From assembly GCA_964406895.1 (NCBI GenBank), contig CAYOTK010000001.1, positions 90,697-154,696 of the forward strand: DNA of 64,000 nt. The letters are read 5' to 3'. The notes beneath the pieces were generated by a model. That model was not told the DNA's origin and did no database searches. It saw only the letters and a list, made by a program, of their open reading frames with translations. A program made the position numbers and the translations under genes. This document shows, in pieces, positions 2,746 to 42,507 of this stretch (its first letter is position 1; every line of letters begins with the position of its first letter). Source of the DNA: an uncultured Candidatus Saccharibacteria bacterium (GTDB lineage: Bacteria; Patescibacteriota; Minisyncoccia; Phycocordibacterales; PALSA-1337).

Positions 2746-3125
2746 ACTTCAGAATGAATACAAAAAACAAACCAAATATTCGGCCATAGCGCTTAACCTG
2801 TTTGGTTATCGTTAGAGCCGCCAAGAAGCGGTTTTGTTTTATTCAGAAAGAAAGCAATTTGAAAACCACATACCGAGAAATAAAATGTAGGTAGTTCATG
2901 TACCATATTTGCCTTGGTCGGCCGATATGAGAATGCATGAACACAAGTAAGTAAGCGGTGTACAGATTTCCTAATGGGAAATCAAGGGCGTATGGTGGAT
3001 GCCTTGGCTAGAAAAAGCGATGAAGGACGTGGCGTGGCGACGATACGCTTCGGGGAGGTGCCGAGCAACCTTTGATCCGAAGATGTCCGAATGGGGAAAC
3101 CCGATTATGTAAAACATAATTACTG

Positions 3126-3263
3126 TGTCTCGTTAGTGTTTATTATAAGCGCAAAGCTCAAAGCTCAAAGGGCAAAACTCAAAAGTAAAGGCAAAAGCTA
3201 AAAACTTTTAACCTTAAGCTTTGAATTTGAACCTTTAACCTTTTAATAAATAGTAACGAGACA
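3126..3263 (+). other. IVS-like expansion in the 23S gene at the helix-9 position. A hairpin (stem tgtctcgttag / ctaacgagaca) encloses low-complexity gcaaagctcaaag repeats.
   Basis: About 100 extra nt relative to E. coli between GGGAAACCC and GGGAACUGAAACAUC. Flanked by an 11-bp inverted repeat. Confidence 0.6.
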
Positions 3264-3591
3264 CGGAGCGTACGTTGGGAAGTAAAACATTTCAGTACCA
3301 ACAGGAATAAAAACAAAAATGCATTCCGTTAGTAGCGGCGAGCGAAAGCGGAGGAGACTAAACTTAACGTCGCAAGACGTTGAGGGTTGCAAGGCAGAGA
3401 CGTGCTATTTATAGCAGAGAAGTTACAAAATCTTTTGTTAGCAGAATGAGCTGGAAAGCTCGACCCTAGAGGGTGATAGTCCCGTAAGTTAAAACAAAAG
3501 ATCTTCTTGGTTTCTGTTCTTAAGTACCCCAGGACACGAATAGCTTGGGGGAATCTGCCGGAACTAACCGGCAAGTCTAAATATTTTTCTA

Positions 3592-3631
<40 letters not shown>

Positions 3632-4437
3632 CAGCCCGGAAGGGCGGTGAAATAGATCTGAAACCATATGCCTACAAGGAGTCAGCGCCGTTGCACCTCA
3701 TTGCATTTGCTATAGTGAAATAATCAATAACCAAGATCCAATAATCAAACTCTTATCGAGTTTTGTTTGTTGATTATTGGTGTTTGATTATTTCATGGTA
3801 TCGAATGTAACGAGGTGTAACGGTCATGGCGTGCCTATTGAAGAATGAGCCAACGAGTTTTAGCAAGCAGCTCGGCTAAGTCCGCGAGGACGGAGTCACA
3901 GGGAAACCGAGTCTGAATAGGGCGTTTGTTGTTTGCTAAAGACCCGAAGCCAGATGAGCTTGCCACGCGCAGGGTGAAGTTCGCCGAAAGGCGGATGGAG
4001 GCCCGAACCGGTTAGCCGTGCAAAACTATCGGATGACGTGTGGTAAGGAGTGATAAGCTAATCGAATCTGGTAATAGCTGGTTCTCTCCGAAAAAACTTT
4101 TGGGTTTGCGTCAGAATTACCTTCGTGGGGTAGAGCACTGGAAGGTCTCGACAGGTCGAAAGATCACGAGACCTATCAAACTCCGAATACACGAAGTAAC
4201 TATCTGGCAGTTAGACTGTGGGGGCTAAGCTCCATTGGTCAAAAGGGAAACAGCCCGGATCTCAATTTAAGGTCCCTAAATCGACGTTCAGTGCGCTTAA
4301 GGTAGTGAAAATTCTACGACAATGAGGATGTAGGCTTAGAAGCAGCCATCATTCGAAGATAGCGTAACAGCTCACTCATCGAGAAATTTCGCGCCGCAGA
4401 TAATCGGGGCTAAAATGTCGTACCGAAACTGAGGACT

Positions 4438-4683
4438 TGTAAACTACATTGAGGAAAATTTTGTTCTTTAGGTACCAGAGTAGTTCAATGGCAGAACAGC
4501 TGATTTGGTTGCGCATTGCGACCGTTTTAAGTCAGTATGTTGAAGGTTCGATTCCTTCCTCTGGTGCCAAGTAGATTTCGGTGCTCGGGTAGCACATCTC
4601 GCCAATAAAGCGAGACGGGTTAAAACCCCGCCGGGCATCAATTTCGGGGGGAACTTCGGTTCCCCTCCTCAATGTAGTTTACA
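4438..4683 (+). other. IVS in the 23S gene at the helix-45 position (E. coli ~1170). A perfect 17-bp flanking stem (tgtaaactacattgagg / cctcaatgtagtttaca) encloses a tRNA-like module.
   Basis: 23S homology stops at 4437 and resumes at 4684. The insertion is bounded by a perfect inverted repeat, as in RNase III-processed IVSs. Confidence 0.7.
4474..4569 (+). ncRNA. tRNA-like element inside the helix-45 IVS. Features: 7-bp acceptor stem (ACCAGAG/CTCTGGT), D-arm (GTTC AATGGCA GAAC), canonical T-arm (GAAGG TTCGATT CCTTC), discriminator G and an encoded CCA. The anticodon region is expanded by ~21 nt (loop-like TTTGGTT, i.e. a UGG-like anticodon, then a 21-nt insert).
   Basis: Folded by hand from the sequence. 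The GGTTCGATTCC T-loop and a 3' CCA adjacent to a complementary acceptor strand are both present. Confidence 0.5.
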
Positions 4684-5231
4684 AGTGGTAGGAGAGTATT
4701 TGCATCGCGATGAAGGTGAAGGGGTGACCCACACTGGAGCGTTGCGAAGTAAGAATGTTGGCACAAGTAACCGCAATGCGGGTGAGATACCCGCACGCCG
4801 AAAGATCAAGGTTTCCTTGGCAATGTATATCAGCCAAGGGTTAGTCGGTCCTAAGGGGATGGCGAATGCCGCACCCGATGGATACACGGTTAATATTCCG
4901 TGACTTTCATAAAAATCGATGGAGTGACGAAGTGTAGTATATTGTGCGCATAATTGGATTTGACGTTCATGTCGTAAGGATGAGTCTTGGTAAATCCGGA
5001 CTCTGCTTTTGATAGCATATCCAAGCGAAGTGAAAATTTCGAGCAATCGGGAAATACAATAAAGCACACTTCCAAGAAAAGCTTCTAAGATTATTTTTAT
5101 GAAAACCGTACCGCAAACCGACACAGGTGGTTAGGTCGAGTAGACCTAGGCGAACGAGTGAGAGGTCTCCAAGGAACTCGGCAAAAAAGCAGCCGTAACT
5201 TCGGAATAAGGCTTGCCCTCTGGATATTGGT

Positions 5232-5295
5232 CGTTAGTTTTTGGTTTTTGGTAATCGCATTTGTGATTACTAATAACTAATTACTAATTACTAAT
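5232..5295 (+). repeat. AT-rich hairpin mini-repeat (ttagtaatta family), copy A, in the 23S helix-63 variable region.
   Basis: The sequence cgttagtttttggtttttggtaatcgcatttgtgattactaataactaattactaattactaata is about 57/65 identical to the reverse complement of 6931-7015. Confidence 0.6.
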
Positions 5296-5489
5296 ACCCA
5301 GAGGGCCGCAGCTAAAGTATCTCTGGCAACTGTTTAACAAAAACACAGCTCCCTGCGAACTCGTAAGAGGAAGTATAGGGGGTGACACTTGACCAATGCG
5401 AGAAGGTCAAATAACGGCGGTGCGATTATATCAAGCTGACTGTTATAAGCCCTCGTGAATGTCGGTCGTAACTATAACGATCCTAAGGT

Positions 5490-6263
5490 TCTTGGTTTAT
5501 TCACAAGAATGAATCAAGAAGGACTGGGATCGTTATGAGATTAATTGTTAAATATAGAAAACGTATAAGGAATTAATAATGCTGCCTATCTGCGCAGAAT
5601 AAAATGCAGATGTCCTAATAAATATCTGACTATATGCTGGGAAGTCTGAGTATCTCAGGTCACTATGGTATAATTACACCATAGTAACAATACCATGAGT
5701 GCAGACAATCAGCAGGAAAGATTAAAAATTGAAAATTGGATTCTTGGTTTCACTGATGGTGAAGGATGCTTTTCGGTTAGTTTTATAAGAAATAAAACGA
5801 CGAAAACCGGATGGCAAATTTTTCCAGAGTTTGTGATTACGAAAGGAGCCAAAAGTCTGTCTGCTCTCAAAATTATCAAAAAATATTTTGGGTGTGGAAA
5901 ATTATTCGTAAACAGACGTCATGATAATCATAGGGAAAATCTATATCGTTATTGTGTTAGATCTGTTACTGAATTGGAGAAAGTTATCGTCCCATTCTTT
6001 CTAAGAAATGAACTGAAGACATTTAAAATGAATGATTTTCGATTGTTTTCGAAAATCATACTGATTATGTCTGCTGGCGATCATTTGAATATAGTGGGAA
6101 TGAATAAAATCGCCAAATTAGTAGAAAAAATGAACAGACGAAAAAAATCTCGATTTTTGAAATCCTCAGAAACCAAACGTCAGACCCTGAGCGAAGCGCG
6201 TAGCGCTGAGTCGAAGGGAAAATAGAGTTCGCGCTGCATAGCGATATGCAGATTAACAAAACG
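5490..6263 (+). mobile_element. Intron-like insertion (presumed group I) in the 23S gene at the helix-69 hotspot (E. coli ~1917), carrying a LAGLIDADG endonuclease ORF.
   Basis: 774 nt interrupt CCUAAGGU|AGCGAAAUUCC. Preceded by U and ends in G. Junction placement is ambiguous by 1 nt. The group I core was not confidently identified by eye. Confidence 0.65.
5695..6225 (+). CDS. LAGLIDADG homing endonuclease, single-motif (homodimer type), intron-encoded.
   Basis: 176 aa with motif ILGFTDGEGCFSV near the N-terminus. Lies entirely inside the 23S insertion. Confidence 0.8.
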   Translation: MSADNQQERLKIENWILGFTDGEGCFSVSFIRNKTTKTGWQIFPEFVITKGAKSLSALKIIKKYFGCGKLFVNRRHDNHRENLYRYCVRSVTELEKVIVPFFLRNELKTFKMNDFRLFSKIILIMSAGDHLNIVGMNKIAKLVEKMNRRKKSRFLKSSETKRQTLSEARSAESKGK

Positions 6264-6894
6264 TAGCGCAATTCCTTGCGGGGTAAGTTCCCGCGCGTTG
6301 AAAAGTGTAATGACTGGAGAACTGTCTCGGAGACTTGCTCGGTGAAAATACAATACCGGTGAAGATGCCGGTTACCTGCAGTTAGACGAAAAGACCCTAG
6401 AAGCTTTACTGTAATTTGGTATTGACTATACGTTTTTGATGCGTAGCGTAGACGGTAGGATTTGAAGTGTCCCTTTCGGGGGGCATGGATCCGACGATGA
6501 AACACCGTTCTTTAAGAATGTATATTCTAACCTCGGCGGTATAAACGCCGGGAGACAGTATCTGATGGACAGTTTTAGTGGGGCGCTATCCTCCTAAACA
6601 GTAACGGAGGAGCCTATTAAGTTCAGCTAGGCGCGAATGGAAACCGTGCCGATAGTGTATGGGCACAAGCTGGATTGACTGCGAGACGTACGTGTCGAGC
6701 AGATGCGAAAGCAGAGCCAAGTGATCCGACCTTACGCATTAGATGCGGGGGAAGCTCATCGGACAAAAGCTACTCTAGGGATAACAGGCTAGTTCCGCCT
6801 AAGCGTTCATAGCGACGGCGGAGTTCGGCACCTCGATGTCGGCTCACCACATCCCGGGGGTGGAGAAGCTCCCAAGGGTTTGGCTGTTCGCCAA

Positions 6895-6929
<35 letters not shown>

Positions 6930-6930
6930 A

Positions 6931-7015
6931 TTTAGTTATTAGTGATTAGTAGTTAGTTATTGGTGATCGCAAATATGATTACCTAAAACCAAGAACTAAT
7001 AACCAATAACCAAGT
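6931..7015 (+). repeat. AT-rich hairpin mini-repeat, copy B, inverted relative to copy A, at the 5' edge of the second intron. A partial third copy lies at 7099-7145.
   Basis: Reverse complement about 57/65 identical to 5232-5295. The ttagtaattagt motif recurs at 7099-7145. Confidence 0.55.
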
Positions 7016-7137
7016 AGGGCAGTCTGAATCACTTCGAGAGATAATTTTAGTAGTCTATGAAAAAGTATAGGAAATGAACAATCATATCATGGCGGTCGTT
7101 TTAGTAATTAGTCATTAGTAATTAGTGATTAGTTCTA

Positions 7138-17370: not shown

Positions 17371-17472
17371 GTGCGTTGTTACATTATTGAATATTTGCTG
17401 TGCAAACCTGAAATCAATTTCAAATTTCGTGCTTGCACTGCGAAGCTCCGAACGAAGTGAGGAGCGAAGCAG

Positions 17473-17545
17473 TGCGCGATACAGGATTCGAACCTGTGAC
17501 CCTTCCCACGTCAAGGGAATGCTCTACCAACTGAGCTAACCGCGC
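17473..17545 (-). tRNA. tRNA-Val (anticodon GAC).
   Basis: Cloverleaf: GCGCGGT acceptor, D-arm TAGCTCAGTTGGTAGAGC, anticodon stem TTCCC/GGGAA with loop TTGACGT, T-loop GGTTCGAATCC. No CCA encoded. Confidence 0.85.
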
Positions 17546-17572
17546 GTATTTATTTATAAATAAACAATATTT

Positions 17573-17691
17573 AATGCATTCTGCCAAGACAGCTAACCGC
17601 GCTTATTTAATGCATTCTACCAAAACAGCTAACCGCGCATATATTTTTAAATAACTTTCTCGATGCATTCTACCAAAACAGCTAACTGCGC
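17573..17691 (-). repeat. Three tandem copies (~27-30 nt each, ~40-50 nt period) of the 5' portion of tRNA-Val (acceptor 5' strand plus a mutated D-arm AGCTGTCTTGGCAGAA/AGCTGTTTTGGTAGAA plus GCATT), lying upstream of the gene.
   Basis: Plus-strand units aatgcattctgccaagacagctaaccgcgc, aatgcattctaccaaaacagctaaccgcgc and gatgcattctaccaaaacagctaactgcgc, compared with the genuine 5' end ggaatgctctaccaactgagctaaccgcgcg. Confidence 0.75.
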
Positions 17692-17753
17692 TTACAAATA
17701 AGATATACTAAAAAAACGACTTGCGCAACTCTTATTCATCGCTTGATTTGCTG

Positions 17754-31269: not shown

Positions 31270-32202
31270 CTATTCGAGGTCGGTCCTCAAGAAGGTCGGA
31301 CCTCCAAAAGGTCCGACCTCATCAGCGTTTTCGTACCAGGAAATCGCCTTATTTCTCTTGAACCAAGTCATTTGTCTTTTTGCATAATGTTTGATCTCCA
31401 TTTCCAGTTCGGCGATCATTTGTTCCAAGGTTAGTTTGTTTTGTAAATGTCTCGCCATGTATCTGTATTCTAGGCCCAGTTCTTCCATTCTCTCAAAACT
31501 CAAACCTCTATTATGTAAATCTATCGCTTCGTTCAGCATTCCTTCATTCAGGCGATTTATTAGTCGAGCATGAATTCGCTGGTGCAATATTTCTTTCGGA
31601 GGATTGATGCCTATGAATACTGGCTCAAAAATAAACTCCAGCTGAGTCGTAGTCTCATGAGTTTTTTCTCCTGACTCTATTTCTATTGCCCGAATAAGTC
31701 TACGAGCATTTTTTCTGTCGGACTCATTCATGGTCTCGGCGCGGTTGATGTTTAAACTCTTTAATAGCTGAAATAATTCATCGACATTTTTCGTTTTTAG
31801 ACTGGCCCTCAATTCTTCATCGGCTCCAACTTCAGGCAGGTTTGTATTGTTTATGAATGAATCAATATAAAATCCGGTTCCTCCACACAGAATCGGAACC
31901 TTATTGTGTTTAATAATTTCCTTTACTGCCTCAGTCGCAAGTTTTCTGAATAGCGTGACCGTGAATCTATCCTGCGGATCCGCAACATCAAGCAAATAGT
32001 GTTTTACACCTTGCATTTCTTCGTTTGTGATTTTGCCAGTCCCAATATTCAAGCCTCTATAAACTTGTCTTGAATCAGCAGATATCACTTCTCCATTTAT
32101 TTCTTTTGCGATTCTAACAGCAAGGTCGCTTTTTCCAGAAGCGGTTGGGCCGAGAATGACTATAATTCTCACATTATTTATTTTTAGTGATGAATCTTTC
32201 AT
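31270..32202 (-). CDS. miaA: tRNA dimethylallyltransferase.
   Basis: ILGPTASGKSDLAV P-loop and DSRQVYRGLNIGTGK motif. The 3' end carries an embedded palindromic repeat. Confidence 0.85.
   Translation of the reverse strand: MKDSSLKINNVRIIVILGPTASGKSDLAVRIAKEINGEVISADSRQVYRGLNIGTGKITNEEMQGVKHYLLDVADPQDRFTVTLFRKLATEAVKEIIKHNKVPILCGGTGFYIDSFINNTNLPEVGADEELRASLKTKNVDELFQLLKSLNINRAETMNESDRKNARRLIRAIEIESGEKTHETTTQLEFIFEPVFIGINPPKEILHQRIHARLINRLNEGMLNEAIDLHNRGLSFERMEELGLEYRYMARHLQNKLTLEQMIAELEMEIKHYAKRQMTWFKRNKAISWYENADEVGPFGGPTFLRTDLE
31272..31322. repeat. GC-rich palindromic (REP-like) element with GAGGTCGGACC units, embedded in the last 17 codons of miaA.
   Basis: gaggtcggtcctcaagaaggtcggacctccaaaaggtccgacctc. 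The same unit family occurs at 46527-46559. Confidence 0.6.
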
Positions 32203-36932: not shown

Positions 36933-37625
36933 TTACAACTTGGCGAGATTTTCTATAGTGTCTACGATATAACCGCGTCCAGACATGTTATGTATGACAT
37001 TGGGTTTGCCACCCTCGTTGAGTTTTCTTCTTAAGTTGCCGATGTGAGATTCTACGGTATTAGAGAACGGATCACCGTCTGCGGTCCAAACATGTTCCAT
37101 GATCAGTCCTCTAGATATAACAATAGATTTATTTCTCAATAAATATTCCAGAATGCCGTATTCTTTGCTGGTCAAATGAATACTTTTTCCATCTCGCGTT
37201 ACCATATGATTCACGGTATCTAGTTTGATATCTTCTATTTCTAGAATATTGTTGTTTTTAATTTCTTTTGGTCGTCGTGTTATTGCTTCAAGCCTCGCGT
37301 ATAATTCTTGCAAAGCATATGGCTTGGTCATATAGTCATCTGCACCACGTTGTAAAGCCTCAACTTTTATATCAACGTCATCGACAATTGATAAGAACAA
37401 TATCGGAGTTGTTTTACCAGCTCTACGTATCTCCGTAGTTACTATCAAGCCATCTTTATTGGGCAGAGAGTAATCGAGAATGATTGCATCGTATTCATAA
37501 CTTCTGGCCAAGAATGAACCGTCCGCTCCGTCATGACTAACGTCTACAACATGCATTTCAGAATTCAAACCACGCTTAACAATATTTGCTGTATTAACGT
37601 CGTCTTCGATTAGTAATAATTTCAT
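36933..37625 (-). CDS. OmpR-family two-component response regulator.
   Basis: Receiver domain MKLLLIEDD...DAIILDYSLPNKDG and a winged-helix DNA-binding C-terminus. No adjacent histidine kinase in the window. Confidence 0.8.
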   Translation of the reverse strand: MKLLLIEDDVNTANIVKRGLNSEMHVVDVSHDGADGSFLARSYEYDAIILDYSLPNKDGLIVTTEIRRAGKTTPILFLSIVDDVDIKVEALQRGADDYMTKPYALQELYARLEAITRRPKEIKNNNILEIEDIKLDTVNHMVTRDGKSIHLTSKEYGILEYLLRNKSIVISRGLIMEHVWTADGDPFSNTVESHIGNLRRKLNEGGKPNVIHNMSGRGYIVDTIENLAKL

Positions 37626-37669
37626 GGCACGATTATAACAATATGAAAGACTTATTGCCAACTTTTTTG

Positions 37670-37741
37670 TGCCCTCAGCAGGAATTGAACCTACATCTAC
37701 TCCTTAGGACGGAGCTGTTCTATCCGTTGAACTATGAGGGC
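37670..37741 (-). tRNA. tRNA-Arg (anticodon CCU).
   Basis: GCCCTCA acceptor, anticodon loop GTCCTAA, T-arm GTAGGTTCAATTCCTGC. Confidence 0.75.
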
Positions 37742-37772
37742 TCGGTAGATCACGACTTTAGATTATCACACT

Positions 37773-38075
37773 TTGAATATAAACATAAACATATGTTATA
37801 CTAGCGCCATGACACCCGAAGATAGAATATTATTGGAGAGAACTTTGAAGCTTGCAGAAGAGAACAATGAAATGCTACATTCTCTTAGGAGAGCCCAGAG
37901 ATTATCAACAACTATGCGAGGTATATATTGGGCTGTCATTTTAGCTTTGAGTTTTGGAGCATATTATTTCATACAACCGTATGTTGAGAATATGCTTAGT
38001 TTATATGGTCAGGTCCAAGACAATATAAACGCAGTGCAAGATGTAAGTGGTTCACTAAAGACGTTCCTGAAATAA
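37773..38075 (+). CDS. Small membrane protein, hypothetical (100 aa; likely start at MTPEDR, 37809).
   Basis: Single TM (IYWAVILALSFGAYYFI). Confidence 0.45.
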   Translation: MNININICYTSAMTPEDRILLERTLKLAEENNEMLHSLRRAQRLSTTMRGIYWAVILALSFGAYYFIQPYVENMLSLYGQVQDNINAVQDVSGSLKTFLK

Positions 38076-38089
38076 GTTTTTAATGACAT

Positions 38090-38230
38090 GCCAAGGTAAG
38101 CTGTCTTGGCAGAAATCATTTAAAATTATCATATACCGCCAAGGTAAGCTGTCTTGGCAGAAATCATTTAAAATTATCATATACTGCCAAGGTAGCTGTC
38201 TTGGTAGAAATCATTTAAAATTGTAATAGA
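38090..38230 (+). repeat. Three tandem ~47-nt units upstream of tRNA-Phe. Each unit is the tRNA 5' fragment (GCCAAGGTA + mutated D-arm AGCTGTCTTGGCAGAA + ATCATT) plus an AT-rich TAAAATTATCATATA tail. Each unit reads as a -35-like TTGGCA/TTGGTA, a 17-nt spacer and a -10-like TCATAT/TAATAG.
   Basis: Units at 38090-38135, 38136-38183 and 38184-38230 are near-identical. The last ends 2 nt before the tRNA. Confidence 0.8.
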
Positions 38231-38232
38231 CC

Positions 38233-38308
38233 GCCAAGGTAGCTCAGTTGGTAGAGCATTCCCCTGAAGAGGGAAGGGTCACCAGTTCGATCCTGGTCCT
38301 TGGCACCA
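38233..38308 (+). tRNA. tRNA-Phe (anticodon GAA) with encoded CCA.
   Basis: GCCAAGG acceptor, D-arm TAGCTCAGTTGGTAGAGC, anticodon loop CTGAAGA, T-arm ACCAGTTCGATCCTGGT, followed by ACCA. Confidence 0.9.
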
Positions 38309-38445
38309 AAACGATTCAATATAAATACTGCGATTTACTGCGGGATGGGGTAACATTCGATCCTGGTCCTTGGCACCAAATTACTCAAAATCATATCGCG
38401 CAAATTGCGGGATGGGGTAACATTCGATCCTGGTCCTTGGCACCA
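38309..38445 (+). repeat. Two tandem ~67-nt units downstream of tRNA-Phe, each ending in a copy of the tRNA 3' portion (GGGGTAACA-TTCGATCCTGGTCCTTGGCACCA).
   Basis: 38347-38378 and 38414-38445 reproduce the T-loop 3' half plus acceptor 3' strand plus ACCA exactly. Each is preceded by a small hairpin (cgcaaattgcg-like). The array abuts the stop of the 1351-aa gene. Confidence 0.8.
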
Positions 38446-38451
38446 AATTAA

Positions 38452-41400
38452 TTATTGCGAGTAAACTTCATTTAGTTTGGCGCGTGTTTTTGGTCCAACA
38501 ACACCATAACCTCTTTCTTTTTCATCTTTGACAACACCGTATTGTAGCTGGAATTTCTTCACGGCTTTCTCAGTAAGTGGGCCATAGAAACCAGTAATTT
38601 TCTTTTCAGGATAAATTTCATTTGATAGTTGAGATAAGAACTTCTGAAGATTTGTTACTTCACGAGACTGAGAACCTACAGACAATTCACTCATAAATGT
38701 TTTTGAATTAATATTTTTAGTATTATTTATGATTTGTGGTATTGCAAGAACCTTATCATTTGAGGTTATTGTGAATATGTTCGATATTGTTTCGGAAAAC
38801 ATGCCAAATGGGTTGAATATTCTAGTGTAAAGAGTATATTCTCCGTCTTTACAATCGGCATTTTTGTTCCTGTATCTTATCAAGGTTTTGCACATATCGA
38901 ATTGAATATCATTTGAGTAATTTAGCATTATAGAATCAGTGAAATTTTTCGATAATGATATTTCAATCTTTTTTGCATTATTATTTGCGTTGGAGTTTAA
39001 TCTAATGATTCGTTCGTCCTTTTGCGTAGAATTATTTTTTACTTGCTTAACTGATAGGGTAAGTTTAACATTTGCGCCATCTGTAAATTTTCTATTGTCC
39101 CAACCGATTGGTAATCTGCCCCCATAGGAGGTTGAAGAAGATGAATTTGAATTCGAAGAAGTATCTGTGGTCGTTGTTACTTCTTCGACCTCAAATGTTT
39201 TGGTTGAATAACCGTCTGAATAAGTGAAAGTAATTTGTCCTGAATTGTCTGCTGTATATGTACCAGTTTGCACGCCGTCTATTTTCAGTGCATAGGTTTT
39301 GCCAGGACTAAGATCACCAATAGTGTGGGCGGTCGTAACACTGTGTGTTGGACTAGATTCAACCCACTTTTTGTAGTAATTTCCTGATTTGTTCCAGTTT
39401 TTGATCTCTACATTTAATGTTGATGCTGAAGGTGCTATTCTCAGAGATGTTGAACTGCTGATGTGAATATCGATCTGTCTATCTATTGAATTGACTATTA
39501 ATCCTTCTGCAGTGGTGCTTGCATAATCCAAACTAATCAAACCGTCTGTTATTGTTGTACTGGCATTTCCAGATGGTGGTGTGATTGAAAGATCCGTGTT
39601 GACTACATTATCAATAGAAGAATCAGACGGATACATGATATAACCATCACCCATAACTGTGTTCGTTACACCTTTGAAGAATTTGACGATGCTTTGGATA
39701 GTAGATGATGCCGTTGAAAGAGCTGGTTCATAATATGTAGTTTTTCTTCTCTCGAAAATAGTACGTATTTCATCTCCAGTAAGGGCTCTGTTATATATTC
39801 GTACATCATCAATGAAACCGTTGAAGAATCGACTTGAATTATTCCATTTACCCATATACAAACCGGTTGTGGTTGCATCAATGCTTCCTGTGAGTGTTCT
39901 AGCTATCGCCGCTCTTAGTTGTCCGTCAAAATATATCTTGATTTCTGGATATGTGAGAGATTGACTATCTGCGACAGCGAATACATGATGCCATTTTCCG
40001 GCTTGTTCAGATGCAGGAATAGTGTACTGTATAGAGTTGTAACCAGCACCATTTGCAATCGCCACTTTTATATCTGATTGTAGAAGAACGTTTCTTTCCC
40101 ATGGAACTGAAAGATAGAAACCTCTTTGGGTCGTGTTACTACCAGAAAAGTCACCTGTAGACTTGTCGATGATAGCTGAACCCCAACTACTTCCTGGTCC
40201 TGCTATGTACACCCATGCTCCGAAACTTATTCCGCCAGTGCCGAAATTGTTTAGACTTGCGGGGTTTCCTGCAGTAGCATAATCATCCTTACCATCGAAT
40301 CTAAGAGCAGAACCAGTTGAGAATAATTGTCCATCCTTTGGACCCCAAGCACCTCCGTCTGTGTCAGTTCTAGCTGCTCCATATATGGTTGCAGTATTAT
40401 TGTTGGAAGAAGAATCTGTCAAAAGGTTACTTGATTGTCTCACTGATACAGAATCAATATATGCCACACCTGTAGTCGTCTCTGAATTAAGATAAACTTT
40501 TATTCTAACACTAGTAGTACTTGTAGCAGTGAATCTTACATTCATCATGTAATATCCTGTTGTTGTAGCCGTTGTTAAGGATTGAGTGGCGAGTATTACA
40601 GAATTTGTAAGATCATACGCTTCTACGTACAGAGTGCCCGCGGTTCTTGAATTGAATCTTTCATAAACTGATAACTGATATTTTTCATTACTAACAGTAG
40701 TTATATTTTGGGTAATGCCAAAACCAGTTGCATTATTTGAAGTGGCCGTAAGTTTGACAGCATGTGAACCAGCGTTAACTATAGATGTCTCGTCTGTAAC
40801 GTCTCTGACTCCAGTAGAAGTAGCATTAATTGTCCAATTATCTATATTAGTTCCTGTCCATGATTCGAAACTGCCATTTTGTATAAGTTCTGTGCCGGGT
40901 GTCTGTTCATCCATCTTAAAATGTGCAACGAGGCCAGAAGTTATGCTGTCCTTTGTAAATGTATTGTCATAGCTAGAAGTAGAAGTAGCACTTGAATTGC
41001 CGTAGTACATGAAATATTTTTCACCAGTAACACCCAATCTGGTAATCGCTTTATCTTTCATCATTTTATAGACATATATATGACCGAGAGCAACATACCA
41101 AACGTCGGTCCTATTTGCTATATACGTAGTGTGTAGATCTGCATACTGTCCTGTTGCTAGGTTAACGCTGGCCGGATGAAACATCAAATGATATATGGCA
41201 CCTCTTGCATATGTCGCATCAAAGACCGCATTAAGTGCGGTTGCGTCTGTTAATCCACTATCGGTTCCCATTCTTTGAGTATATCCTATCTGCCCATATA
41301 CACCGTACTTTGAGTCCCAATCAGCACTATGATACTTGTCGTATTCAATTGCAGAAAATACGTCGCGGTTTGCTAGGTATTTATATTTTCCAAGTGTAGT

Positions 41401-42507
41401 ATACACACTCGTATCTTCATTACCTCCGGGGGCGATCCAGGTATACAAATAATCTGTAGAACCTTTCCTGAATAATGGAGGGAATACCAAGTTGTTTATA
41501 ATGCTATTTTTACTATCACCTATTTCAACATCATAGTCTGCATATGGTGTCACGGTGTGGTTCGTAGAGTGTGAAGCCGGCTCTATATATCCTGCGTTAA
41601 CTTTATTTTGAACGTTTGTCCAGTTTGGAACTCTACCAACCCCTGTTTCTATACCTACAGCAAACCAGAGATGCTTACTAGAAAGCATGTCACAAGAACT
41701 GGCGAAAACAGTTTCTCCAGAACTTGTCCAGTCATCTCCAGATATTGTTACTCCCGCAACGCGATTGTCATAATAGTCAGTAATTTTTTTGTAAGTACCA
41801 ACTTGAGTTCCGCTCGAGTTAACAACTTTTATAAATATGTCATTTGAATTGGCGTCAAACGCAGCAGAAACATAAGCTTTGTTGTTTGTGTAATCAAATC
41901 TTACTGCGTCAATGCCGTTGAAAAAATCACTGGAAGTCTTTTCGGTAAGCTGAGTCCAACTTGTTGATGTTGCTATATACTTAACATATGCCTGAAGACC
42001 TGATGAACCAGCAGGGATATCGAATTCATATGTTACTGGATATGACAGACCGTAATTATCTCTAAGTGTAGATGAAGCGTTGAATCCGTAGTATTCTGGA
42101 ACCGAAGTAGAAGCGGCTGTGATATTAGCCCAAATTACAGCATTCTTATTCGTGGAATCCCAATTTTCAATGAAAAAGGGAACCAAGCTCGTCTTGTCAG
42201 AAGAAGTGATCCTAATGTCTGAACCGTCAACAGCAGCTTTTCTAAAATCAATATAATTTGATTTTGAGGTATCATTACCTTGAATAATGATTCTGGTTTG
42301 ATAGCCAGAAGGTGTTGATGTGCCCACATTGTCTAGGATGAGTGGCGCTCTAAAATTCCAACCCGTAAGCCATGTATCGGCAGCTTTTGCCATATTGTCT
42401 CCAATGACTAAAATAGCAGCTATGAATATTATTGAAAGAATTAAATATTGAGGTGCAAAATACTTAGTAAAATTTCTTCGAATATCTCCGTGGGATTTGA
42501 TTTTCAT
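38452..42507 (-). CDS. Giant secreted or membrane-anchored surface protein (1351 aa) with a LamG/concanavalin-like domain and a C-terminal peptidoglycan-binding (PG_binding_1-like) domain.
   Basis: N-terminal TM. LamG-like block FDGKDDYATAGN...GGISFGAWVY...FNGFIDDVRIYNRALT. C-terminal LQKFLSQLSNEIYPEKKITGFYGPLTEKAVKKFQLQYGV. Confidence 0.7.
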   Translation of the reverse strand: MKIKSHGDIRRNFTKYFAPQYLILSIIFIAAILVIGDNMAKAADTWLTGWNFRAPLILDNVGTSTPSGYQTRIIIQGNDTSKSNYIDFRKAAVDGSDIRITSSDKTSLVPFFIENWDSTNKNAVIWANITAASTSVPEYYGFNASSTLRDNYGLSYPVTYEFDIPAGSSGLQAYVKYIATSTSWTQLTEKTSSDFFNGIDAVRFDYTNNKAYVSAAFDANSNDIFIKVVNSSGTQVGTYKKITDYYDNRVAGVTISGDDWTSSGETVFASSCDMLSSKHLWFAVGIETGVGRVPNWTNVQNKVNAGYIEPASHSTNHTVTPYADYDVEIGDSKNSIINNLVFPPLFRKGSTDYLYTWIAPGGNEDTSVYTTLGKYKYLANRDVFSAIEYDKYHSADWDSKYGVYGQIGYTQRMGTDSGLTDATALNAVFDATYARGAIYHLMFHPASVNLATGQYADLHTTYIANRTDVWYVALGHIYVYKMMKDKAITRLGVTGEKYFMYYGNSSATSTSSYDNTFTKDSITSGLVAHFKMDEQTPGTELIQNGSFESWTGTNIDNWTINATSTGVRDVTDETSIVNAGSHAVKLTATSNNATGFGITQNITTVSNEKYQLSVYERFNSRTAGTLYVEAYDLTNSVILATQSLTTATTTGYYMMNVRFTATSTTSVRIKVYLNSETTTGVAYIDSVSVRQSSNLLTDSSSNNNTATIYGAARTDTDGGAWGPKDGQLFSTGSALRFDGKDDYATAGNPASLNNFGTGGISFGAWVYIAGPGSSWGSAIIDKSTGDFSGSNTTQRGFYLSVPWERNVLLQSDIKVAIANGAGYNSIQYTIPASEQAGKWHHVFAVADSQSLTYPEIKIYFDGQLRAAIARTLTGSIDATTTGLYMGKWNNSSRFFNGFIDDVRIYNRALTGDEIRTIFERRKTTYYEPALSTASSTIQSIVKFFKGVTNTVMGDGYIMYPSDSSIDNVVNTDLSITPPSGNASTTITDGLISLDYASTTAEGLIVNSIDRQIDIHISSSTSLRIAPSASTLNVEIKNWNKSGNYYKKWVESSPTHSVTTAHTIGDLSPGKTYALKIDGVQTGTYTADNSGQITFTYSDGYSTKTFEVEEVTTTTDTSSNSNSSSSTSYGGRLPIGWDNRKFTDGANVKLTLSVKQVKNNSTQKDERIIRLNSNANNNAKKIEISLSKNFTDSIMLNYSNDIQFDMCKTLIRYRNKNADCKDGEYTLYTRIFNPFGMFSETISNIFTITSNDKVLAIPQIINNTKNINSKTFMSELSVGSQSREVTNLQKFLSQLSNEIYPEKKITGFYGPLTEKAVKKFQLQYGVVKDEKERGYGVVGPKTRAKLNEVYSQ

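Follow-up and report, generated by a model that had tools for sequence, protein, structure and literature searches.

Why should a tRNA gene stand between tandem repeats of its own two ends? The question is raised by a tRNA-Phe gene in the 64,000-nucleotide stretch of Candidatus Saccharibacteria DNA that we analyzed (hereafter the window), where pieces resembling the 5′ end of the tRNA are stacked upstream of the gene and pieces resembling its 3′ end are stacked downstream (Table 1). A reading of the sequence alone had taken the arrays for stuttered promoters or possibly for decoy substrates of tRNA-processing enzymes. We examined the structure of the units, their occurrence in related genomes, and the readings that could account for them.

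Tandem copies of both ends of tRNA-Phe

ARAGORN and Rfam each reported one intact tRNA-Phe(GAA) with an encoded CCA, as had been expected. The gathering threshold of RF00005 was passed by 38233-38305 only (69.3 bits), and the 5′ and 3′ fragments gave zero tRNA matches in the Rfam search, even at E ≤ 10. Tandem Repeats Finder described the upstream array as a repeat of period 48 over 38090-38241 (3.2 copies, 92% matches), and the downstream array as a repeat of period 67 over 38286-38450 (2.4 copies, 85% matches). The three direct repeats noticed upstream are real (48, 48, and 47 nt long), as are the two 67-nt direct repeats downstream, each ending in the exact tRNA 3′ end, with unit copy numbers in the window being those assembled in this contig.

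Table 1 Features of the tRNA-Phe and tRNA-Val loci (positions in the window)
Feature	Position	Strand	Remarks
Small membrane-protein ORF	37809..38075	+	Conserved, 88 aa from ATG, directly upstream of array
5′ unit 1	38090..38137	+	48 nt; tRNA-Phe nt 1-12 plus extra A (GCCAAGGTAAGCT)
5′ unit 2	38138..38185	+	48 nt, 98% identity to unit 1
5′ unit 3	38186..38232	+	47 nt, adjoins tRNA-Phe; GCCAAGGTAGCT + GTCTTGGTAGAAATCAT + tail
tRNA-Phe(GAA)	38233..38308	+	Intact, CCA encoded; ARAGORN, Rfam
3′ unit 1	38309..38378	+	47-nt spacer, then exact copy of nt 54-76 (38356-38378)
3′ unit 2	38379..38445	+	44-nt spacer, then exact copy of nt 54-76 (38423-38445)
Surface protein gene	38452..42507	-	Convergent, 1351 aa (Laminin_G_3, CBM_4_9, PG_binding_1)
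tRNA-Val(GAC)	17472..17545	-	Identity to tRNA-Phe at positions 8-31, 39-50
tRNA-Val(GAC) array, three upstream 5′ units	17546..17691	-	17691-17639, 17638-17603, 17602-17546

Each 5′ unit reproduces the stretch that runs from the upstream flank to about nt 29 of the tRNA. The units open with GCCAAGGT(A)AGCT, which is tRNA nt 1-12, continue with GTCTTGG[C/T]AGAAATCAT in place of CAGTTGGTAGAGCAT, and run into an AT-rich tail; in unit 1 the altered D arm reads GTCTTGGCAGAAATCAT and the tail closes with the leader ..ATACC. The outer part, consisting of the leader and nt 1-12, is identical to the gene, and the lesions lie inside it: CAG at positions 13-15 is replaced by G-T-Y, and the 3′ strand of the D stem is disrupted after A23. 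The tails have no significant similarity to tRNA nt 28-76, and we therefore rejected the idea that the units are whole decayed tRNA copies. The tail of unit 3 includes TGTAAT/TAATAG (38222-38229), which is similar to the TGTAATAT elements upstream of tRNA-Trp and tRNA-Leu in the window.

The 3′ units are built in the same manner, each copying roughly nt 38-76 and a few trailer bases. The last 23 nt of tRNA-Phe (T54 to A76, TTCGATCCTGGTCCTTGGCACCA) occur in three exact copies, starting at 38286, 38356, and 38423 (chance expectation 0.00), and an identical 45-nt block occupies 38339-38383 and 38406-38450. The outer part (nt 54-76 and a few trailer nt) is again identical to the gene, and inside it ACCAG has become AACA, which breaks the stem; the spacer of 3′ unit 1 ends in GCGGGATGGGGTAACA, a diverged copy of tRNA nt ~38-53 in which the 5′ strand of the T stem is broken. 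The small hairpin thought to precede each 3′ copy does not stand out, its folding being no better than that of shuffled sequence (z = -0.04 and -0.57). No 5′ or 3′ copy is able to fold as a tRNA.

On its downstream side, the array does abut the stop codon of the surface protein gene, whose ORF ends one base past the 45-nt block. Relatives show synteny between the small membrane-protein ORF on the other side, tRNA-Arg(CCT), and tRNA-Phe. An extended -10 element (TGTTATACT, 37794-37802) sits 6 nt 5′ of the ATG of this ORF, so it may be co-transcribed with the tRNA-Phe array, and a search of 37600-38700 for intrinsic terminators (a G+C-rich hairpin followed by a T run) returned zero sites. The genes neighboring the tRNA-Phe array include those for ParB, TopA, a response regulator, and the surface protein.

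The sequence-only reading had named two grounds on which it would fall, namely assembly error and, as a sign of neutral slippage debris, absence of the arrays from close relatives together with a lack of transcription from the units. Contigs of relatives often end within arrays (L017, L021, and L069; L numbers denote related loci), and short-read assemblers clearly struggle there. However, the same architecture recurs across independent samples and assemblers (contig names suggest MEGAHIT and SPAdes, and the records come from JGI and NCBI), and the units of relatives lie in unique flanks on both sides. The close relatives carry one or two upstream units and one downstream unit. Because independent assemblies of close relatives share the architecture, the arrays are real, and we give next to no credence to an artefact of mis-joined or expanded repeats.

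A unit family at four tRNA isotypes

The tRNA-Val units of the window consist of GCGC[G/A]GTTAGCT, then GT[T/C]TTGG[T/C]AGAATGCAT, and then a tail, and an additional decayed copy is found directly upstream of their array at about 17692-17730. The altered D-arm motif AGCTGTYTTGGYAGAAWKCAT has six copies in the window vs 0.04 expected, all of them upstream of tRNA-Phe or tRNA-Val, so the unit family is not gene-specific. Every one of these copies carries the acceptor strand of its own tRNA.

A search of related CPR genomes for the variant D arm, suggested by the sequence-only reading, found the motif upstream of other tRNA genes as well. It occurs upstream of tRNA-Phe, Val, Ile, and Thr in assemblies of Saccharibacteria, Parcubacteria, and other Patescibacteria, and in all related loci it follows the acceptor strand of the local tRNA. 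Units were found at tRNA-Phe and tRNA-Val in a Saccharibacteria assembly (L004), at tRNA-Ile in a Parcubacteria assembly (L003), at tRNA-Thr in an uncultured bacterium (L001), and at tRNA-Phe in eight metagenome contigs. The tRNA genes that carry the family (Phe, Val, Ile, Thr) have the D arm AGCTCAGTTGGTAGAGC, and they belong to several Patescibacteria lineages. Two lineages are without units (L022 and L026), the frequency of unit-less tRNA genes being based on eight protein-anchored lineages only. Our literature searches found no prior description of such repeats in Patescibacteria, and a paper on group I introns in Patescibacteria tRNA genes makes no mention of such fragments.

G-T-Y at positions 13-15 is shared by 22 of the 24 distinct unit cores, representing four isotypes. 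Most related loci were retrieved via the motif itself, so that its apparent conservation is partly by construction; for the same reason, we do not rely on the higher pairwise identity in the variant segment than in the tails (0.73 vs 0.37). G-T-Y is also present in the loci found without the motif (L018, L024, L028, L004-Val, and the tRNA-Val array of the window). Random decay does not predict this replacement, which is a point against regarding the units as debris.

The units copy lineage-specific leader bases (2-15 nt) and lineage-specific features of the tRNA, such as GAGCGC in L028 and the Val anticodon arm in L004, and are therefore derived from, or homogenized with, the local gene. Their turnover is rapid, with unit copy number varying among near-identical strains. 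Three loci whose neighbor protein is 94% identical (L018-L020) have 1 + 1 or 2 + 1 upstream and downstream units, and in strains whose TsaD is >90% identical (L066-L068) the Val array differs in unit lengths and C/T states. Old units have degenerated in L024, L011, and L012. Furthermore, the sequence 5′ of the first unit aligns to the unit body in 5 of 11 loci (z = 3.1-5.5), a signal that owes much to shared leader bases at its 3′ end; the alignment is consistent with tandem duplication in which the distal copies decay.

We consider the arrays most likely to result from birth-and-death tandem duplications of both gene boundaries, and thus to be duplication debris and not a dedicated device, a reading in which our confidence is evenly balanced. 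The locus would then be one working tRNA-Phe gene between two short tandem arrays of truncated and disabled copies of its own ends. As direct repeats, the exact outer blocks would permit unequal recombination or replication slippage, which would add and remove units and keep the blocks homogenized with the gene, and distal copies would be left to decay into spacer. The Phe units of the window would have no dedicated function and would be tolerated as pseudo-fragments in the leader and trailer region.

The persistence of the repeats in very compact genomes hints at some benefit, against the debris reading. We entertain, more tentatively, the possibility that the altered D arm (AGCT-GTY-TTGG-Y-AGA with the lesion after A23) is not decay but a selected, Patescibacteria-specific cis element. 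In that case, tRNA genes with the D arm AGCTCAGTTGGTAGAGC would duplicate their own 5′ end into a regulatory module. The module may be an extended -10 promoter derived from the D arm; it may also, or instead, be a leader element that controls maturation by pairing either with nt 1-12 of the tRNA or with its own acceptor strand. The Phe array of the window would be partly degenerated and the Val array intact.

Promoter, integration, and RNA-level readings

The D-loop change had been read as creating a -35 box, TTGGCA, at 17 nt from a -10-like hexamer. We scanned for sigma-70 promoters (both hexamers with at least 9/12 matches, a 16-18-nt spacer, and A2 and T6 in the -10) and found none on the plus strand in the Phe units and none in the Val array. 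The hexamers in question, TCATAT and TAATAG, have only 3/6 matches to TATAAT and are missed by a consensus scan. Two further results led us to discard this type of promoter: its geometry is not constant, the next tRNA or unit beginning 21 to 59 nt from TTGG depending on the locus, and the closest relatives (L018-L020), with a tail of 16-17 nt, have no -10 at all.

A different form of promoter agrees better with part of the family. Duplication of the flank and D arm would put TTGGTAGAGC upstream, and two changes would make this TGGTAGAAT, which is an extended -10 element with the G+C-containing discriminator GCATCG behind it; the 5′ units would then be working promoters made from the tRNA's own 5′ end, raising tRNA output in tandem. 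The pattern TGnTAnnnT is enriched in the intergenic DNA of the window (5.9 vs 2.6 per kb), where it lies 6 nt 5′ of many start codons and also upstream of tRNA-Arg and tRNA-Ser, and it is present in two of the three tRNA-Val units (a and b, TGGTAGAAT at 17667 and 17614). Among the 24 unit cores, YAGAAT is found in 12 and the strict TGnTAnnnT pattern in 6; the 12 TGGYAGAAT cores continue with GCAT(C/T)G in nine cases and with GCATTA in three. The tails of L003 and L013 also hold TGATAGTAT and TGATACTGT. That 12 of 24 cores match the extended -10 type is itself an observation against debris, and the promoter reading explains why units occur only at tRNAs with the D arm ..TTGGTAGAGC...

We nevertheless regard working promoters as unlikely. 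YAGAAA, TAGACA, or TAGACG, all without the essential last T, are found in the Phe units of the window, L018-L020, L005, L009, L011, L028, and L004-Val; in the window's Phe units TGG[C/T]AGAAA has no T-7, and the extended -10 pattern TGnTAnnnT is absent from them. The AAT class is over-represented because our search pattern required GAAW.CAT. Moreover, the reading leaves G-T-Y at positions 13-15 and the 3′ units unaccounted for, and its -35/-10 version fails the consensus scan. Likeness to P1/P2 tandem and extended -10 promoters lies in the many units elsewhere that combine TGGYAGAAT with GCATCG, in the two to three promoters in series that the arrays would provide, and in the TGnTAnnnT promoters that the genome of the window is predicted to use; unlike known stable-RNA promoters, the unit element derives from the gene's own D arm, and it is absent or defective in the window's Phe units. 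If the arrays are duplication debris, the only plausible promoter element in the Phe array would be TGTAAT/TAATAG in the tail of the last unit; alternatively, tRNA-Phe may be read through from the leaderless small ORF upstream.

The arrays were also held not to be a classical att duplication, and this stands because there is no insert and no integrase: in the window, the 3′ copies are 44-47 nt apart, with no mobile element or integrase bracketed or nearby. The fragments might still be scars of elements with tRNA-targeting tyrosine recombinases, left by repeated integration in which the core was duplicated and the element mostly deleted, with arm remnants staying behind. The T loop is the exact starting point of the 3′ identity block (nt 54-76 and trailer), which extends through CCA, as classical attL/attR pairs do. 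The 16 nt to its left (GCGGGATGGGGTAAC) are conserved in the window, L018-L020, and the more distant L012, and the remaining spacer is not; the two cores of L018 are followed on the right by different sequences, as attL and attR would be, and GCCAAG-N8-CTTGGC in the Phe units resembles a recombinase core site. The start of the block at the first base of the T loop is also a side observation against debris. K. Williams' 2002 survey is said to give the T-loop start as the crossover site of one class of tRNA-targeting integrase. The arrays thus share with att duplications a 3′-end direct repeat that begins at the T loop and runs a few bases past the gene, but they differ in having 5′ copies too, which are the more widespread.

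Such scars seem highly unlikely to us. Only 24-60 nt separate the repeats in each of >20 loci, with no element body or integrase anywhere. The leader bases in the 5′ units are the lineage-specific ones of the gene itself, and an incoming element would not bring these along; the Val and Ile units are without the inverted-repeat core. Neither variant arm had an exact match in 2.9 million viral contigs, and the 3′ core and the altered 5′ arm likewise gave zero matches in viral contigs. The 5′ fragments that viral contigs do contain have CAG as the D-arm triplet in 27 of 29 matches, with TAA and CAA in the other two, and never G-T-Y. BLAST of phage and plasmid records for an attP counterpart matched the tRNA itself only. 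We rejected a phage or plasmid origin, as the viral-contig scans and BLAST gave only ordinary tRNAs or 5′ fragments with the unaltered triplet.

At the RNA level, the units might act in the precursor. In a Phe or Thr unit, the copied acceptor strand pairs with the altered D loop to give a 7-8-bp hairpin, which could stabilize the small-ORF mRNA at its 3′ end once RNase P has cut; alternatively, the unit could base-pair with nt 1-12 of the tRNA and so modulate its maturation. All four changes in the Phe units (C13G, A14U, G15Y, and U20C) lengthen the pairing with GCCAAGGU, and the unit hairpin has a predicted ΔG of -7 to -12 kcal/mol vs -5.4 for the true 5′ end. An old unit in L024 retains the hairpin despite a changed tRNA acceptor. 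There is no predicted terminator between the small ORF and tRNA-Phe, and co-transcription of ORF and tRNA is likely in L022, where the tRNA starts 4 nt after the stop codon.

However, the Val and Ile units have the same changes without a hairpin (ΔG = -2.7 to -6.4, no better than true 5′ ends), which eliminates the hairpin of Phe and Thr as the family-defining feature. Folding z-scores of units are only -0.6 to -1.5, no better than shuffles. Equilibrium folding of whole precursors predicts that the copies would capture the 3′ acceptor strand or the 5′ end of the tRNA, which would be harmful and not helpful. Reverting the lesions in silico gave mixed results, the true acceptor stem forming less often in four loci, more often in two, and with little change in two; in native and reverted versions alike, the copies are predicted to out-compete the true 5′ strand at equilibrium. 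We therefore judge a role in the precursor RNA very unlikely. The suggestion of decoy substrates for RNase P, RNase Z, or the CCA-adding enzyme fares no better: an acceptor helix with a T arm cannot arise from a single unit, the units do not fold exceptionally well, and the prediction is interference with tRNA folding rather than service to it. The predicted fold of the whole array is not a cloverleaf, and the Rfam search of the units returned only chance-level matches and no known RNA family. CRISPR- or TIGR-type guide-RNA arrays were considered because one Val unit is 36 nt long, and were dismissed since the units are near-identical including the "spacer" part and no effector-like gene is adjacent.

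Parallels and implications

Under the preferred reading of duplication debris, the closest architecture is that of plastids. In the plastid trnL-trnF spacer, trnF(GAA) pseudogenes of 32-73 bp stand in tandem immediately 5′ of the functional gene, in one to seven copies; in Brassicaceae, Solanaceae, Asteraceae, and others, they comprise partial tRNA domains and differ in copy number between close relatives (PMC3786074). Sigma-70-like promoter motifs alternate with these copies or precede them, and the copies are considered non-functional outcomes of recombination (PMC3786074). The window's arrays agree with this type in having tandem partial copies immediately 5′ of a functional tRNA, with copy number variable among relatives. 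They differ in that the acceptor strand and leader are exact and the anticodon part is missing, that there is a 3′ array as well, and that the same altered D arm occurs at four isotypes in free-standing bacterial genomes. The likeness is one of architecture and presumed mechanism only, and the origins are probably independent.

The 3′ units have a counterpart in tyrT of E. coli, where Egan and Landy in 1978 and Rossi et al. in 1981 reportedly described 178-bp units, in 3.14 repeats downstream of tRNA-Tyr, as the source of rtT RNA; each unit is said to contain the tRNA 3′ end, and the repeats are said to be attributed to unequal recombination. In both systems, downstream tandem units end in the exact 3′-terminal 19-23 nt or so, including CCA. 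The units here are 67 nt and not 178, inside they carry a diverged copy of tRNA nt 38-53, and the 3′ units of the window, whose arrays gave no match to the rtT Rfam model at E ≤ 10, are not known to contain an ORF or to yield a processed RNA.

Arrays that are debris would still matter in practice, since they interrupt short-read assemblies at tRNA genes, can pass for att sites or the borders of genomic islands, and offer a fast-evolving strain marker for organisms mostly known from metagenomes; the very compact genomes of Patescibacteria would tolerate a birth-and-death repeat family at essential genes. If the G-T-Y "disarmed D arm" is selected instead, it would illustrate how a stable-RNA gene, by copying part of itself, can give rise to a promoter or a leader control element of its own. 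The units would then also provide a handle on tRNA transcription and maturation in a phylum for which, to our knowledge, both processes are almost undescribed.

Arrays of gene ends at tRNA-Phe and tRNA-Val

The sequence-only reading placed a single intact tRNA-Phe within arrays of its own ends, and this was borne out by ARAGORN, Rfam, the repeat units and a 23-mer count. tRNA-Phe(GAA), its CCA encoded, is the sole intact copy by ARAGORN and Rfam. It is preceded by tandem partial copies (5′ units) and followed by two 67-nt copies of its 3′ end (3′ units), the last of which adjoins the stop codon of a convergent gene for a 1351-aa surface protein. The 5′ units open with exact nt 1-12 of the tRNA (units 1 and 2 with one additional A), carry GTCTTGG[C/T]AGAAATCAT in place of the gene's CAGTTGGTAGAGCAT, and end in AT-rich tails whose final bases repeat the gene's own leader. 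The 3′ units terminate in exact nt 54-76 (T loop, T-stem 3′ strand, acceptor 3′ strand, and ACCA), a 23-mer with three occurrences vs. 0.00 expected; directly before it, GCGGGATGGGGTAACA represents diverged nt ~38-53, with the T-stem 5′ strand broken. Rfam matched no family beyond the tRNA itself at this array, and the "small hairpin" earlier seen in the 3′ units did not survive folding: neither 5′ nor 3′ units surpass shuffled sequence in folding.

A k-mer check covering the window's seven tRNAs revealed three upstream units at tRNA-Val as well. In these, the altered D arm seen at tRNA-Phe comes after the Val acceptor strand GCGCGGT, and the region upstream of the three looks like a fourth, decayed unit. 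The common 21-mer AGCTGTYTTGGYAGAAWKCAT is found six times in the window (0.04 expected), solely at tRNA-Phe and tRNA-Val; the D arms of the remaining five tRNAs are different, and these genes lack copies.

The tRNA-Val and tRNA-Phe genes themselves are identical at positions 8-31 and 39-50, anticodon stem included. The corresponding pair in a related Saccharibacteria assembly (L004) differs at these positions, which suggests gene conversion or remoulding between the two genes in this lineage.

A tRNA-like element (Rfam tRNA, 58.5 bits; not called as a tRNA by ARAGORN) lies in the 23S rRNA gene, within a ~215-nt insertion at model position ~1218. It has the acceptor ACCAGAG/CUCUGGU, normal D and T arms, a 25-nt anticodon-loop insertion, and then GCCA, and could be an RNase P/Z processing signal fragmenting the rRNA. 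The gene measures 4083 nt vs. 2925 nt for the model, and thus holds ~1.1 kb of insertions.

Positions of the features discussed
Feature	Positions	Strand	Remark
tRNA-Phe(GAA)	38233-38308		
tRNA-Phe 5′ units, three	38090-38137, 38138-38185, 38186-38232		head-to-tail, upstream of gene
Extended -10-like sequence in tails of units 1 and 2	38123-38131, 38171-38179	minus	
Small ORF	37809-38075	plus	membrane protein
tRNA-Val	17472-17545	minus	
TGnTAnnnT, examples	18207, 52726	minus	
TGnTAnnnT, examples	32977, 37794, 52748, 56555	plus	
16-nt tandem repeat	31277-31321		upstream of tRNA-Trp (minus)
23S rRNA gene	2972-7054		
tRNA-like element	4474-4566	plus	
AT-rich 7-nt and 14-nt tandem repeats	3147-3247, 5266-5296, 6928-7013, 7101-7133		in or adjoining 23S gene
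GCGCGGA in L064	930-965	minus	35 nt upstream of tRNA-Val

Distribution and anatomy of the units

Scanned with the motif, a genome collection of 185,579 species yielded four real loci, plus a fifth match that is probably due to chance. The four are tRNA-Thr in an uncultured bacterium, tRNA-Ile in a Parcubacteria assembly, a contig end in Patescibacteria, and tRNA-Phe in L004, which is syntenic with the window and has a unit upstream of tRNA-Val too. In a metagenome collection, the scan gave eight tRNA-Phe loci (1-3 units each), a ninth match (L010) at a contig end with the acceptor strand of another tRNA, and two further matches that are probably chance. The variant D arm, which the sequence-only reading had suggested seeking upstream of tRNA genes in relatives, is therefore found at tRNA-Phe, Val, Ile, and Thr. 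Units derive from the local gene: the acceptor strand is that of the downstream tRNA in every real case, and 2-15 nt of the lineage's own leader are usually copied as well.

Motif-based retrieval is biased, and we therefore also sampled loci by neighbouring genes: the small ORF that precedes tRNA-Phe and the TsaD gene adjoining tRNA-Val. In the closest relatives (small ORF 94% identical), a single 3′ unit accompanies one or two 5′ units of 38 nt, with two contigs terminating within the array, and strains with >90% identical TsaD differ from the window's Val array in unit length, internal deletions, and C/T at positions 15 and 20. No units occur in two more distant lineages. Among lineages sampled without the motif, one has a lone old unit whose acceptor strand is now mismatched to its own tRNA, another carries three units whose positions 13-15 read GAC, GTT, and AAC, and one has a 5′ fragment with CAG retained and a 42-nt two-hairpin insertion. 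Given this motif-free sampling, tRNA-fragment arrays are real, widespread, patchy, and fast-changing; an assembly artefact, barely conceivable here, is excluded by independent assemblies.

The fragment with the insertion belongs to a more distant relative (L030-L032, where the source name of the small ORF points to Candidatus Taylorbacteria); it lies ~70-170 nt downstream of the small ORF, ahead of tRNA-Phe, and retains TAGCTCAG. Its insert, between G15 and TTGG, comprises two 7-bp hairpins (CCCCGAC..GTCGGGG and AGCCGAC..GTCGGCT) and may be a small palindromic element. In L064 (TsaD 62% identical), a lone GCGCGGA without the D-arm motif matches the Val acceptor strand with one change, and may be the last remnant of a unit, or chance.

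Among 24 distinct unit cores, position 13 is G in 23 and A in one, position 14 is T in 22 and A in two, and positions 15 and 20 are each C or T. Directly after A23, the 3′ strand of the D stem is interrupted by inserted AT, AA, or C (by loss of G24 in the L004 Val unit), while the leader, nt 1-12, TTGG, and AGA are unchanged from the gene. Past the lesion, a unit tracks its local tRNA: units at genes with GAGCAT read GCAT..., those at genes with GAGCGC read GCG..., and the L004 unit copies even the Val anticodon arm. Unit tails lack homology to the remainder of the tRNA. In five of 11 loci, what precedes the first unit can be aligned with the unit body (z 3.1-5.5, a signal largely from shared 3′ leader bases), which is expected if tandem duplication is followed by decay of the distal copies. 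The change of CAG to G-T-Y at positions 13-15 recurs in four isotypes and several lineages. It could reflect selection for promoter context, for a hairpin, or for a heterology island blocking gene conversion with the essential gene; it could also be a slippage-type lesion in which C13 and A14 were lost and the T16 T17 run expanded, for which the GTTTTGGTTTTGG of the L004 Val unit may be cited.

Promoter signals at the arrays

Each 5′ unit had been read as a promoter with a -35 box TTGGCA, N17, and a -10 hexamer. This reading failed: a consensus scan was empty on the plus strand of the Phe units and in the Val array, the spacing between TTGG and the following start varies from 21 to 59 nt, and the closest relatives have no -10 candidate. 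Promoters of the window genome are of the extended -10 type, and TGnTAnnnT is enriched in intergenic DNA (5.9 vs. 2.6 per kb) and present upstream of tRNA-Arg and tRNA-Ser. It also precedes many start codons by six bases, with exactly 6 nt to the ATG of several genes (ParB, the small ORF, and others), which suggests widespread leaderless mRNAs in this genome.

That the 5′ units are functional promoters derived from the D arm is unlikely. Two changes convert the D arm TTGGTAGAGC into TGGTAGAAT, and YAGAAT is present in 12 of the 24 cores, all window Val units included, followed by GCAT(C/T)G in nine of the 12 and by GCATTA in three (two of them window Val units). However, the last T is missing in the window's Phe units and most loci sampled without the motif, and the search pattern itself favours units with YAGAAT. 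A D-arm-derived cis-regulatory module may be entertained tentatively. Other tRNA promoters of the window have TGTAATAT (tRNA-Trp and tRNA-Leu), and in the Phe array only TGTAATAG resembles it; this occurs in the tail of the last unit, just 3-5 nt before the mature 5′ end. Alternatively, tRNA-Phe may be read through from the leaderless small ORF, since the interval between the two has no predicted terminator.

Read in reverse orientation, 5′ units 1 and 2 each contain in their tails TGATAATTT, an extended -10-like element directed toward the small ORF and tRNA-Arg. The 16-nt repeat AGGTCGGACCTCAAAA near tRNA-Trp (2.8 copies) amounts to three copies of the palindrome GGTCGGACC/GGTCCGACC and adjoins the upstream side of the tRNA-Trp promoter region.

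Origin of the arrays

All changes in Phe and Thr units lengthen a hairpin with the copied acceptor strand, as would suit an RNA-level role in which this hairpin caps the upstream mRNA or sequesters a decoy strand. Such a role is improbable, since this hairpin is impossible in Val and Ile units, which share the changes, and equilibrium folding predicts that units interfere with the tRNA. We consider att scars improbable: although the start of the T loop is also the exact start of the 3′ block, and distant loci share the block's conserved left flank, mobile-element signatures are absent, with no element body or integrase at any locus and no counterpart found in phage, viral-contig, or plasmid sequences.

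Five viral contigs (L036, L046, L048, L042, and L052) contain 5′ tRNA fragments (GCC[A/G]AGGTAGCTCAGTTGGTAGAGCA..., ~27-35 nt, then non-tRNA sequence) in which the G-T-Y change is absent; such contigs may carry tRNA genes interrupted by introns, or else att sites in the 5′ portion of a tRNA.

We give roughly an even chance to the arrays being tandem duplications of both tRNA gene boundaries. The exact outer blocks would act as direct repeats for unequal recombination or slippage, which would explain why copy number turns over, why the blocks are identical to the gene, and why distal copies decay. The inner lesions leave every copy incapable of tRNA folding. No description of such arrays was found in the literature on Patescibacteria and other bacteria; the architecture and likely mechanism are already known from plastids and E. 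coli. Among the closest precedents for the arrays are the 178-bp repeats downstream of E. coli tyrT, each with the 3′ end of the tRNA. Plastid trnF(GAA) pseudogene arrays are another (PMC3786074). Architecture, turnover, decay, descent from the local gene, and the lack of mobile-element signatures are all shown by the data; the arrays presumably arise by recombination, and their units probably serve no dedicated function.
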